Shown here: positions 19,712 to 44,203 of the stretch, in pieces
Numbering within the stretch: the first letter of the stretch is position 1
How the letters are laid out: each line of letters opens with the position of its first letter
NCBI GenBank assembly: GCA_040507985.1
Contig: JBEVNR010000002.1
Span: forward strand, 71,538 to 135,537
DNA: 64,000 bases
Direction of reading: 5' to 3'
Source of the DNA: Rickettsiales bacterium
GTDB taxonomy: Bacteria; Pseudomonadota; Alphaproteobacteria; Rickettsiales; UBA6187
The notes under the pieces: model-generated
Database searches by the model: none
What the model saw: the letters and a program-made list of their open reading frames with translations, nothing else
Told to the model about the DNA's origin: nothing
Translations under genes and position numbers: made by a program

Positions 19712-20028
19712 AACGGCGACCGCCCCCGAACATTAACTATACGTTAATTTCATGGAGTTTTTTTTGCAATAGAAAAATGAGAGCGCGTGCGTAAAGATAT
19801 ATTTACTATAGCGTAGGACTAAAAAAGATCCGGAAGGCGCGTCAAAAAACACGATACGGATAGCGTATTTTTGTTTTTTATTTTTTTAAAAACAAGAATA
19901 CCTACATATAGCATTAAAAAGAGCGTGGCGTTCGACGTACCTGCCGTGCGAACCAAAAAAACATAACGCCATTTGCCTAAGTCATCCTTCCTTCAGCATA
20001 GAACCGATTCAAGATCGTAAGGCGCGAC

Positions 20029-21039
20029 TTACAAGGGAGTGGGGTAAAGAGTTCTCTTTTCCGTCACGGTGGAAGTCACCCAAGTAGTCGTTTCCTGAAT
20101 AACGGTTACCATGTGTTGTGCGTCCGAAGAGGTTTCTTCCGGTTCTTCGATTGCGAGAAGAGTGACGGTATGATGCTGCGTAATGGTATATGTACTGGTA
20201 GGAATCACGCACGTCGTAGTCGGGGAAGCAAACTCTAAAGTTCTGGTAATAGTAGTTACCTGTTTAGTCATGCTTTTAAATTGGTTGCAGAATCCCTTGA
20301 AAGGAATCGGGCCAATGAATGCGTCACGAAAGAGCAGGGCAAGAGATTCGGATGGAATGGCGCCCGTTTCACAAGAAAAAAGCATTTCCTGCGTCTGTTC
20401 GGAAGACATCTTCGGAAGTCCTTGCGTAAGAACGGAAACGATGCGGGTGAGCGCGTCGCCGTCGTCAAGGCTGACGTCGGTATTTCCGGAGTCACACGCG
20501 GCTACTTGGCGATTGACGCTCTCCAGATTAGCGGCGGTGGATTGCTTATATTGAAGCGCTCGATTCAGTTCCTTAGCGATGTGCATGGCTTCGTTCTTAG
20601 GCGTTTCAGCGGATAATCCGAAGTACGTAAGAAACCAATCCAAAGGCTTAACCAATTGAATCACTAAACCGTTATTGCGTTTCATGGCGGTGAGCGCTTC
20701 AACTTCCAACTTCGCCTCCTCAAACAATATGATTGCTTGTTTAGTGACCTTCGGCAGATACTTGCAATCAACGGCAACATATTTGTCAAATTCGGTTAGG
20801 GAGATGGCAGGCATATCGAAGACGGCAACCGATTTGGCAGGCGAAGCGGCGGCGGAAGGATGAGAAACGCGATGGTAGACGCATGTCACGGCGAAGGTAA
20901 ACAAAAACCCGGCAAGTATCGTAAAGCAGTTGAATCCATGGCGACGTCGGCTAGTCTTCTCGGAACGGTTGAGGGGAAGAAATTCCGACGACTTCTTGTT
21001 AGCGTTCACATTGTCGCTATAAGGGGGGTAGGACGTCAT
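20029..21039 (-). CDS. Orphan signal-anchored protein with a Thr-rich C-terminus (lower-GC islet)
   Basis: The 336-aa ORF is the only long ORF in an AT-rich-flanked, lower-GC block. It has one TM segment (FNCFTILAGFLFTFAVTCVY) after a 45-aa basic N-terminus. The C-terminus is T-rich (TKQVTTITRTLEFASPTTTCVIPTSTYTITQHHTVT...). I recognised no family. Confidence 0.6.
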   Translation of the reverse strand: MTSYPPYSDNVNANKKSSEFLPLNRSEKTSRRRHGFNCFTILAGFLFTFAVTCVYHRVSHPSAAASPAKSVAVFDMPAISLTEFDKYVAVDCKYLPKVTKQAIILFEEAKLEVEALTAMKRNNGLVIQLVKPLDWFLTYFGLSAETPKNEAMHIAKELNRALQYKQSTAANLESVNRQVAACDSGNTDVSLDDGDALTRIVSVLTQGLPKMSSEQTQEMLFSCETGAIPSESLALLFRDAFIGPIPFKGFCNQFKSMTKQVTTITRTLEFASPTTTCVIPTSTYTITQHHTVTLLAIEEPEETSSDAQHMVTVIQETTTWVTSTVTEKRTLYPTPL

Positions 21040-21316
21040 GATGTTTGTGGAAAATGCAGTGACGTCAGCGGAAAGCGTGGGCGGCGTAAGGAAAGTGGTA
21101 GCGCGAGGAAAGATGAGGAGGCGGTAAAGCGAAGCTAGGGATGGTAATTAAGATTATACTCGTATATTAATATTAAAGTCAATTTTTTTTAAGATAAGTA
21201 ATTAATTTTAAAGATAATTAATAGATTTTTTGCATCCTGCCTAGTTCATGCGGGCGAGTCTGTGCCTTGTAACGCAGTTATTTCGCTCTATGGTTTTGGG
21301 CGTCCGTCTCATTTTG

Positions 21317-43056: not shown

Positions 43057-43281
43057 TTCATTGGCCGTTGAAATGCAACGCCAATATTTCCGCTTAAGGC
43101 TCTTTATATAAAGCATATCACTTAATTATTTGACTATAGTTATTGCGCGTTCGCAAAAAAATGGATATTATGTAAGCCACATCACATCTTTCAATCTACC
43201 GGCGCCACACGCCAAAGATTAGGTTTCTACGCCCACGCTGCAGGCAGCCTTTCACCGTCTTTTCTAACGATCAGTTACGCA

Positions 43282-44061
43282 ATGTCTTTGTTTCCTCCTG
43301 TTACTCCTACTCCGCCCTACGGAATAGATCAGCGGAATTATGACCTCAATTTTGTACCTCGCTCATCATGGAACGCCCAAAATCAACCTCATATCCTCCC
43401 GCCGATAAAGGAACACATGCAACGCCCTTCCGCAAAGAGCGACCTACTTAACTTATGTGGAGCAATCATCGCGTATTGCACTAACGAATACTCAATCAAC
43501 AACCAATTCCTATCGCTACAGAATCGAATAGAAGCCGCCATCGGATTTTTGACGCAACAAGAGAAACAATCGCAGCTGCAAAAAGAAAAAGAGAACCTGC
43601 AACAAGAAAAAGACAAACTTGATCTCTTGGTTAAGAATGCAAATCATATACTCTCGAATATGAAGCATATTGCTGACGGTGGCAAAAACAAAATAGCGTT
43701 GAATGCAGCAATTACCTACTATGCAGATACATGGATTCCCCTACAACAAAAGCTGGACAATAAGCAATCCATAAAGTCTCAACTAACATTTAGCGCAGCT
43801 CGCCTTGCATCCACCGTTATACTCTTGGAGTTTTTACAGAAAATACAAACCTCGCTCGGAATCCCGACAATCGCTACGGAACTACCATCCACAACCACAG
43901 GCAACAACAAAAGAAAGCGCGAGGATGACAACGATTCGGATGACGCTACGCCGAAAAACAAAGCCAATACGAGTCGCACCCTTCCGCCACCTAAGAAAAA
44001 AGGCCAGAATGGTAGAAAATCCAAAGACGACGGCGACGATAGCGGTTCTTATCATCCTTAA
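43282..44061 (+). CDS. Orphan coiled-coil protein with a basic NLS-like C-terminal tail
   Basis: This 259-aa ORF lies in a lower-GC islet. It has a Q/K/E-rich coiled-coil stretch (QQEKQSQLQKEKENLQQEKDKLDLLVKN). The tail reads GNNKRKREDDNDSDDATPKNKANTSRTLPPPKKKGQNGRKSKDD. I recognised no family. Confidence 0.55.
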   Translation: MSLFPPVTPTPPYGIDQRNYDLNFVPRSSWNAQNQPHILPPIKEHMQRPSAKSDLLNLCGAIIAYCTNEYSINNQFLSLQNRIEAAIGFLTQQEKQSQLQKEKENLQQEKDKLDLLVKNANHILSNMKHIADGGKNKIALNAAITYYADTWIPLQQKLDNKQSIKSQLTFSAARLASTVILLEFLQKIQTSLGIPTIATELPSTTTGNNKRKREDDNDSDDATPKNKANTSRTLPPPKKKGQNGRKSKDDGDDSGSYHP

Positions 44062-44203
44062 GCGAATATAGCGGCCCTTATGCCCCATAGCCTCCCTTCC
44101 GCTCCTTTTCCCGCAGGCGTTTCAGGATTTTTTTACGCGCCGCAGGTCGGCTTTCCCGTCATAAAAAAAGAAAAATATTTTTGCATCGAACCCGCAAACG
44201 ACG

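Follow-up and report, generated by a model that had tools for sequence, protein, structure and literature searches.

Six AT-rich ORFan genes among GC-rich core genes of a Rickettsiales-like genome: candidate lineage-restricted accessory genes against a background of shifted GC content

The stretch of DNA analysed here (the window; 64,000 nucleotides, C21:71538-135537) is part of a metagenome-assembled genome of 2.07 Mb in 58 contigs, whose source belongs to a Rickettsiales-like order, has genes for flagella and type IV secretion and, at 55.3% GC, stands out as GC-rich in a family that is otherwise AT-rich. Between its housekeeping genes lie six open reading frames (ORFs), designated O1 to O6, which are lower in GC than their neighbours and whose products belong to no recognised family. 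Judged by sequence searches, the six fall under the definition of ORFans or taxonomically restricted genes, having no homologue outside a narrow lineage, and they represent new protein families, each known so far from one metagenome-assembled genome. We consider it somewhat probable that they are accessory genes restricted to this lineage and either young or fast-evolving, of which four would have products in the cell envelope and two would have products that are possibly secreted. They follow a known rule, that genes confined to a single lineage are AT-richer than the resident genes around them (PMC12315717, PMC3514957), and the finding is an instance of this well-known pattern, made conspicuous by the rise in GC of this genome over its relatives.

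Composition was profiled as GC in 500-bp windows and, per gene, as GC at third codon positions (GC3), the latter against a crude whole-genome set of 1769 non-overlapping ORFs with a median GC3 of 0.67. GC drops to 0.45-0.49 at 19.5-21.5 kb, 0.43-0.51 at 25.5-29 kb, 0.40-0.50 at 35.5-37.5 kb, 0.41-0.50 at 40-41.5 kb, 0.43-0.46 at 43-44 kb and 0.39-0.44 at 57.5-59 kb, whereas the genes adjoining these dips have a GC of 0.58-0.63. An earlier reading made from the letters of the window alone (the sequence-only reading) had described sharp and repeated switches in composition, and GC does fall in each of the blocks that it named; the dips are real, but every single one is moderate and their sharpness was described too dramatically. 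The six ORFs all lie within the lowest 28% of the genome by GC3: O1 (20029-21039, minus strand) has a GC3 of 0.54 (19th percentile), O2 (29021-30331, plus strand) 0.60 (28th), O3 (35643-36473, minus strand) 0.48 (9th), O4 (36668-37468, minus strand) 0.46 (8th), O5 (40234-41280, plus strand) 0.55 (21st) and O6 (43282-44061, plus strand) 0.45 (6th). Their GC-rich neighbours are housekeeping genes, comprising an S8 protease gene, mutL, dnaX, a PAS/HisKA sensor histidine kinase gene, folP, purC, lptC, lptA, rsmI, yraN, nadA, phaR, flgD, fliK and gap. The spacers next to the orphans (19712-20028, 21040-21316, 28782-29020, 30332-30635, 35393-35642, 36474-36667, 37469-37668, 41281-41581 and 43057-43281) had been singled out as very AT-rich, but with a GC of 0.35-0.44, the 8th to 45th percentile of 1055 intergenic regions (median GC 0.45), they do not differ from the usual intergenic DNA of this genome. 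Chimeric assembly of a contig could also produce such a mosaic, but this was rejected because genes of low GC sit within long contigs among GC-rich genes, for example at C4:96424-98867 and in the window itself.

None of the six ORFs reaches threshold in Pfam, NCBIfam, PHROGs or PADLOC, and none matches a PDB chain sequence at E <= 0.1. Sub-threshold matches to Transglut_core3, lasso B2 (O5), FliH (O6), SPICE (O2) and phrog_3073 (O3) were far below the curated cut-offs and were rejected as chance, and a role in defence was rejected on the lack of PADLOC matches among the six. When the six were joined as one query, tblastn found nothing in 72,556 plasmid records and 50,697 phage records, a six-frame search found nothing in 11 other species of the family, and nothing beyond chance was found in 400 genomes of the order, where a lone match with a per-genome E of 6e-4 is expected by chance across that many genomes. 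A word-based search of a library of 5.8e9 proteins returned nothing for O2, O5 and O6 beyond themselves or their own copies, while a profile of O1 and its paralogue (see below) found only those two among 1.84e9 representatives. O2 has no relative in the genome contigs library and O3 has none in metagenome contigs of the Joint Genome Institute. At 90% identity, the six cluster only with this genome's own copies (NCBI and one Logan run). Inside the genome, whole-proteome phmmer and jackhmmer searches with the six recovered only the O1 pair, and an all-against-all search of 302 low-GC3 ORFs yielded few families. The earlier suggestion that these proteins match no recognised family was therefore correct; they are true orphans in the family libraries, the PDB, phages, plasmids and the 400 genomes of the order, the searches having gone deeper for O1, O2, O5 and O6 than for O3 and O4.

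Four of the six products contain hydrophobic segments. O1 (336 amino acids) has one anchor segment at residues 35-56, followed by a helical central part and a tail rich in Thr. A distant paralogue is located at C30:10672-11709 (minus strand), where it is also a lone low-GC gene, between neighbours read by eye as rho and mdh; the two proteins have the same layout of N-terminal anchor, helical middle and Thr-rich tail, and they share the motif S-C-x-T-G-x-x-P-S...G-x-I-P-x-x-G-F-C. O3 (276 amino acids) begins with a signal-like N-terminus and a Ser/Pro-rich stretch, followed by one transmembrane segment (residues 74-104), the sequence RKGRLPFCCCWKRR with a CCC triplet that is found in only 3 of 1407 proteins, a Glu/Lys-rich helix and a Pro/Gly-rich tail; by the positive-inside distribution of charges its C-terminus is predicted to be cytoplasmic. 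O4 (266 amino acids) has four hydrophobic segments, a net charge of +20 and two copies of an internal repeat, G-A-x-Q-N-A-R-K-x-S-x-A-T. O5 (348 amino acids) has two or three N-terminal transmembrane segments, a soluble C-terminal part of 190 residues and 10 Cys; gene callers prefer ATG 40252 as its start, which gives 342 amino acids. The gene was also recovered from Logan run SRR28982155, where the 2.2 kb of contig retrieved match the window at 100% identity and so show no polymorphism. The tails of these four proteins are neutral or acidic.

The remaining two have no hydrophobic segments. O2 (436 amino acids) is soluble, with predicted helices over residues 35-301 and a stretch without predicted structure over residues 302-436; this tail of 135 residues is Pro/Gln-rich, is predicted to be disordered and ends in RPTGERGSSGRSSER, and its last 16 residues include 4 R, a count that just 4% of the proteome equals or exceeds. 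O6 (259 amino acids) is likewise soluble, with a high content of Gln, Lys and Asn; an alternative start at ATG 43417 (Met46), which is preceded by AAGGA and used by one gene caller, gives 214 amino acids. The last 50 residues of O6 hold 13 K/R, in the top 2.6% of the proteome, and contain KRKR. The sequence-only reading had listed N-terminal hydrophobic anchors among shared effector-like traits; hydrophobic segments are present in O1 (one), O3 (two), O4 (four) and O5 (two or three) but are missing from O2 and O6.

Coding status was assessed with codon log-odds over six frames and with 1000 first-order Markov shuffles of each ORF's own region. Every ORF (259-436 codons) exceeds the longest open frame of all 1000 shuffles (longest shuffled frames 236-299 codons), and the annotated frame has the top codon score among the six frames for six of the six ORFs. 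The scores themselves, in bits per codon, are 0.28 for O2, 0.17 for O1, 0.08 for O5, 0.05 for O6, -0.03 for O3 and -0.04 for O4, with a genome median of 0.34. O1 has a promoter-like sequence, TTGACT-18-TATAAT, at 21182-21153 that agrees with the consensus at 11 of 12 positions, O2 has a promoter-like site at 28907-28935, and at the stop codon of O4 there is a hairpin followed by a T-run (36669-36653). That the six are not genes at all, and are instead chance frames, decaying pseudogenes or untranslated proto-genes in AT-rich DNA, we regard as very improbable. Such an explanation could draw on the scores of O3 and O4, at about 0 bits per codon and near the 5th percentile, on the lack of clear Shine-Dalgarno or other ribosome-binding sites ahead of the six, and on the low confidence of both AlphaFold2 models, in which the predicted local distance difference test was 39 for O1 modelled with its paralogue and 43 for O2 modelled from a single sequence, both unusable. 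It is opposed by the length and frame results, by organised features such as transmembrane segments followed by positive-inside charges and internal repeats, and by the O1 paralogue, which is diverged yet collinear and is the best single argument for a real coding sequence.

In order to place the six among other genes of like composition, it is useful to consider the genome as a whole. Among ORFs of at least 150 amino acids, 223 of 1407 (16%) have a GC3 below 0.56, and these form 176 runs, 142 of which are single genes; random placement gives 159 singles. Because this low-GC minority lies scattered near-randomly and mostly singly throughout the genome, the islets are not peculiar to the window. 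Membership in a Pfam family is less common in this class, both in a random sample taken outside the window (5 of 10 low-GC3 versus 10 of 10 high-GC3 genes, p 0.03) and when that sample is pooled with the window (8 of 18 versus 30 of 32, Fisher p = 2e-4). An IS1595 transposase belongs to the low-GC3 genes, but the other half of the class is not foreign. The adk, secY and spc ribosomal-protein operon (adk-secY-rplO...rplE) has a GC3 of 0.19-0.35, the alpha operon (rpsM-rpsK-rpoA-rplQ) 0.35-0.48, nusG with rplKAJL 0.43-0.51 and mnmG-rsmG 0.33-0.37, with rpoB at 0.56 and fusA at 0.57; the four gene groups with a GC3 of 0.19-0.51 lie at C50:49048-54302, C4:96424-98867, C11:83971-86728 and C23:27972-30447. 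Most of these genes, nusG included, were named by eye, SecY and GidB being confirmed by Pfam. On the other side of the distribution, groEL, dnaK, atpD, recA, ftsZ, both virB4 genes and virD4 have a GC3 of 0.71-0.75. Ribosomal-protein and translation genes are therefore the AT-richest coding DNA of this 55% GC genome, which is the reverse of what is usual in GC-rich bacteria.

The relatives of this genome provide the context for this observation. In eight relatives from the family nadA, dnaX and mutL have a GC of 0.32-0.44 and a GC3 of 0.20-0.41, and secY has a GC3 of 0.20-0.37. Nine regions of 17-20 kb from seven relatives have a GC of 0.31-0.40 with narrow ranges of GC3, and the standard deviation of GC per 1 kb is 0.022-0.042 in relatives versus 0.050 in the window (window GC 0.555). 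All sampled family relatives (G002-G010, loci L027-L066) are at 31-40% GC; the present genome is 15-24 points higher and more heterogeneous. Because the relatives are uniformly at 31-40% GC, it is the GC-rich "core" that is the derived state, and a large lineage-specific shift in GC has apparently taken place. SecY is 52-55% identical to SecY of the family, a range similar to that of DnaX (44-51%) and MutL (46-53%), and since these ranges agree, a recent import of the AT-rich translation genes, the ribosomal-protein operon among them, from any relative sampled here was considered and rejected. With the ribosomal-protein and secY operon as the AT-richest DNA of the genome, and with AT-rich relatives throughout the family, a low GC does not identify a gene as foreign here. 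The genome is thus a test of the use of composition to call foreign DNA, which in this case is unusable, and it is a natural case in which to study how a GC shift spreads, with orphans, mobile elements and ribosomal-protein operons lagging behind. The most interesting items lie beside the orphans, in the GC shift of the genome and in the AT-rich ribosomal-protein operons within it.

Our preferred explanation for the six ORFs rests on this background. Most genes of the genome would have been driven to a GC3 of about 0.65-0.75 and about 16% would not, these being scattered near-randomly and mostly singly. At 19.7-44.2 kb the minority consists of the six ORFans and an HpaII-type restriction-modification pair, with a prophage remnant further on. 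Each ORFan is apparently a separate unit between AT-rich spacers, and could have arrived from unsampled donors or have originated or diverged locally. Their age and origin, and the reason for their composition, are inferred: a GC-raising force, which could be biased gene conversion or selection, may have acted on most resident genes, and the ORFans may have had little time, or no homologous partner, for it to act on them, so that they would stay near the unselected intergenic level of 0.45. Their GC3 of 0.45-0.60 is at or just above that level, with the resident genes above them and the ribosomal-protein genes below. O1, O3, O4 and O5 would sit anchored in the inner membrane of the bacterium itself, with envelope functions specific to the lineage, and O2 and O6 would be soluble helical proteins with disordered basic tails.

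Several observations weigh against this reading. The weak codon scores of O3 and O4 and the missing Shine-Dalgarno sites have been given above. Low GC3 is also found in old core genes (those for ribosomal proteins, secY, adk, rpoA, mnmG and rsmG), so GC3 is not a clean marker of age; the atypical composition of the six (6th-28th percentile) does not discriminate, ribosomal-protein genes being lower still. The six islets contain no integrase, transposase or tRNA genes and no flanking direct repeats, and because such signs of mobility are lacking, acquisition by transfer is not demonstrated. Lastly, the sampled relatives include neither another genome of the genus nor a second strain.

Bacterial ORFans of this type have been described before. 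As a rule they are short and rich in AT, a composition to which rapid divergence also leads (PMC12315717, PMC3514957); AT-rich bacterial ORFans were described by Daubin and Ochman in 2004, as outlined in a review (PMC12315717), and population data on ORFans are available for E. coli (PMC3514957). The six resemble them in having no outside homologues, a GC below that of resident genes, a scattered distribution among core genes and products without assigned function, many of which are predicted to be membrane-associated. They differ in being long (259-436 amino acids), and in that low GC in this genome also marks ribosomal-protein genes. The contrast between orphans and residents is unusually visible because the genome is a 15-24-point GC outlier in its family. 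A second parallel is the "transmembrane-first" birth of de novo genes from T-rich non-coding DNA (Vakirlis et al. 2020, as it is cited in PMC12315717), to which the presence of transmembrane segments in four of the six, the near-intergenic composition and the lack of detectable ancestors correspond, although the six are much longer than typical de novo genes.

It is possible, with a smaller but appreciable probability, that the orphan status of the six is a failure of homology detection, in which case they would be old, vertically inherited and fast-evolving genes whose AT-richness reflects AT-biased mutation under weak constraint. Housekeeping proteins are only 29-66% identical to those of family relatives and LptC, although essential, was detected in just one of eight relatives (E <= 1e-5), and it is because of this low identity that detection failure must be given weight. 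This genome is also the sole species of its genus in the reference set, and rapidly diverging genes are likewise AT-rich (PMC12315717). Gene neighbourhoods provide evidence in the other direction. When 12 flanking core proteins were located in eight family genomes, the order was found to be scrambled, as had been proposed for the operons of the window; rsmI-yraN is kept in two relatives (G007 and G010) and lptC-lptA in one (G007), and the rest are scattered. The gene that follows yraN differs in each of the three genomes, and where O5 sits here the two relatives that keep rsmI-yraN have unrelated genes without an O5-like architecture. Likewise, the gene upstream of lptC in G007 is unlike O3 and O4 in orientation and layout. 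No distant relatives were found among the 1.84e9 representatives (O1 profile) or the 5.8e9 proteins (O2, O5 and O6), which also argues against detection failure. The G007 gene itself (L057:2995-3699, minus strand) is a lipoprotein-like ORF whose long tail is rich in Gln, Pro and Met; orphan-like genes of low complexity thus stand beside lpt genes in relatives too, without detectable similarity to O3 or O4.

Phages and integrative elements are the classical source to which AT-rich ORFans are attributed. The six could accordingly be the cargo of decayed mobile elements, "moron"-like genes left behind by phages or integrative elements, an explanation that we find doubtful. A restriction-modification cassette (25744-27788) and a remnant with repressor and primase sequences (57637-59413) are present in the window and have a like composition, and the IS1595 transposase is among the low-GC3 genes. 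In addition, O5 is abutted by a copy of a dispersed repeat of about 150 bp, here called E2, which occurs at 31-35 loci in the genome. E2 consists of a hairpin with the ends GTCATTCCCGCGAAAGCGGGAATC...GATTCCCGCTTTCGCGGGAATGAC followed by a TTAATTCATGTTTTTGCCCTG module, and the right half of a copy, with the hairpin end GATTCCCGCTTTCGCGGGAATGAC and then a TTAATTTATATTTTTGTCCTG module, lies at 41395-41480 (plus strand) between O5 and nadA. Genes that flank E2 have a GC3 below 0.56 in 25 of 56 cases (45%), versus 19% genome-wide (binomial p 1e-5). Opposed to a cargo origin are the lack of any PHROG match and of any tblastn match in the phage and plasmid records, the lack of integrases, tRNA genes (of which the window has none) and flanking direct repeats in the six islets, and the near-random placement of islets that are mostly single genes. 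The islets are thus similar to genomic islands and mobile restriction-modification cassettes in their atypical composition, and the restriction-modification pair and the remnant are of such a kind; the six orphan islets differ in having no integrases, tRNA targets, direct repeats or phage or plasmid matches.

The E2 repeat resembles a miniature inverted-repeat transposable element, with hairpin ends ATTCCCGC-N4-GCGGGAAT and a conserved TTAATTCATGTTTTTGCCCTG module downstream. Several of its copies are at contig ends, and the SRR28982155 Logan contig ends within the copy of the window. A second repeat, a 148-bp palindrome at 23231-23378 between a DUF498 gene and mutL, is found at 32 loci, with full-length copies 92-95% identical, and shows no bias towards low-GC genes.

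The sequence-only reading had compared the window with host-associated alphaproteobacteria that accumulate effector genes, and this comparison is supported in part. There are orphans, the gene order is scrambled, other families of the order carry the ATP/ADP translocase in multiple copies, and the genome encodes two VirB4 proteins (PF03135, E 1e-52 and 2e-27) and a VirD4 (PF02534, E 4e-150), all with intact frames and at a native GC3 of 0.75, so that an export route for effectors exists in the form of type IV secretion system (T4SS) genes with VirD4. However, the six contain no Ank, LRR, TPR or other eukaryote-like domain (Pfam, NCBIfam), no ATP/ADP translocase is found in the family, and four of the six are membrane-anchored. 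The location and function of these proteins we infer from their segments: those of O1, O3, O4 and O5 are of the signal-anchor or multi-pass type that is typical of a bacterium's own inner membrane and would insert there. The "eukaryote-like" motifs are weak evidence, since K[KR]x[KR] occurs in 28% of the proteome and four consecutive K/R in 11%, and motifs resembling nuclear localisation signals are accordingly common by chance.

O2 and O6 are the only plausible secretion substrates among the six. That they, chiefly, are effectors delivered through the rvh T4SS into a eukaryotic host or predator or into a rival bacterium seems to us unlikely, although they have no membrane segments, their basic tails are uncommon (4% and the top 2.6% of the proteome), and known Rickettsiales effectors are lineage-specific (PMC9352585). 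The narrower proposal, that O2, O6 or both are rvh T4SS substrates that act in a eukaryotic cell, with the KRKR/PPKKK tail of O6 targeting the nucleus, is one that we would put at still lower odds. No homologue of the six was found in any library, verified effector sequences not having been compared directly. In comparison with known rvh T4SS substrates (PMC9352585, PMC11077975), the similarities are the duplicated VirB4 with VirD4 in the genome, the disordered basic C-termini of the orphans O2 and O6 and the low-complexity segments; the differences are the lack of Ank, LRR or TPR domains, the likeness of four of the six to the bacterium's own membrane proteins, and the fact that translocation is here only hypothetical. 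In "basal" Rickettsiales families no effectors have been identified, and the substrates and targets of their T4SS are open (PMC9352585). If the proposal were true, it would provide the first concrete cargo for the T4SS of this group (PMC9352585), and in a family that has a T4SS and no known effectors O2 and O6 are in any case a practical starting set for translocation tests.

The lifestyle of the organism also bears on the question of effectors. Classical host-dependent Rickettsiales carry an ATP/ADP translocase. Among the 40 relatives searched, one to five genes for it were found in six other families, whereas none was found in the 12 genomes of this family, the present genome included. The window contains the flagellar genes flgD and fliK, and elsewhere in the genome there are a secretin and a protein whose N-terminus carries a pilin-type methylation motif. 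Because the family lacks the translocase and these flagellar genes, the secretin and the pilin-type motif are present, host dependence is not established, and the profile matches that of "basal", possibly free-living Rickettsiales.

The blocks of low GC in the window are not all lone orphans. They had been described as single-gene islets, which is mostly correct, but 25707-30635 contains four genes and 35393-37668 contains two. The four are those for an R.HpaII-like endonuclease, a C5 methylase, a GH16 glycoside hydrolase and O2, the last two being only mildly low (GC3 0.63 and 0.60). The first two form the pair at 25744-27788 (minus strand), with the endonuclease at 25744-26832 and the C5 cytosine methylase at 26829-27788, the genes overlapping by 4 nt. 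The endonuclease matches PF09561 (RE_HpaII) over residues 5-361 of 362 (E 3e-94) and has a GC3 of 0.45, while the methylase matches PF00145 (E 1e-74) and has a GC3 of 0.54; by these family matches the pair is a predicted type II restriction-modification system of the HpaII type. The GH16 gene (27930-28781, minus strand) matches PF00722 (E 4e-37). The block at 57413-59546, also proposed as an islet, is indeed low in GC, but it is a remnant of a prophage or integrative element (57637-59413, minus strand). It consists of a CI/LexA-like repressor gene at 57637-58245 (PF00717 with a helix-turn-helix; phrog_4, E 1e-17) and a primase fragment at 58877-59413, of which residues 12-78 align with positions 251-321 of the 802-position phrog_2249 DNA primase profile. 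The 631-bp gap between them (58246-58876) is non-coding, has a GC of 0.34 and is probably decayed DNA of the element.

Other small genes of the window deserve mention. A 179-amino-acid protein encoded at 34024-34563 (minus strand; GC3 0.59), with two or three hydrophobic segments, has no match in Pfam, NCBIfam, PHROG or PADLOC and is a seventh family-less membrane protein, absent from the list of the sequence-only reading. Directly 3' of the 402-amino-acid dnaX frame there is an ORF of 138 amino acids (25290-25706, plus strand) with a weak match to the C-terminal part of gamma/tau (NF006585, E 0.04, positions 473-589). At the edges of the window, 1220-1549 (minus strand) encodes a helix-turn-helix-like protein of 109 amino acids with a GC3 of 0.42, and an ORF of 324 amino acids (63962-64000+, plus strand) that runs past the end of the window has a GC3 of 0.36.

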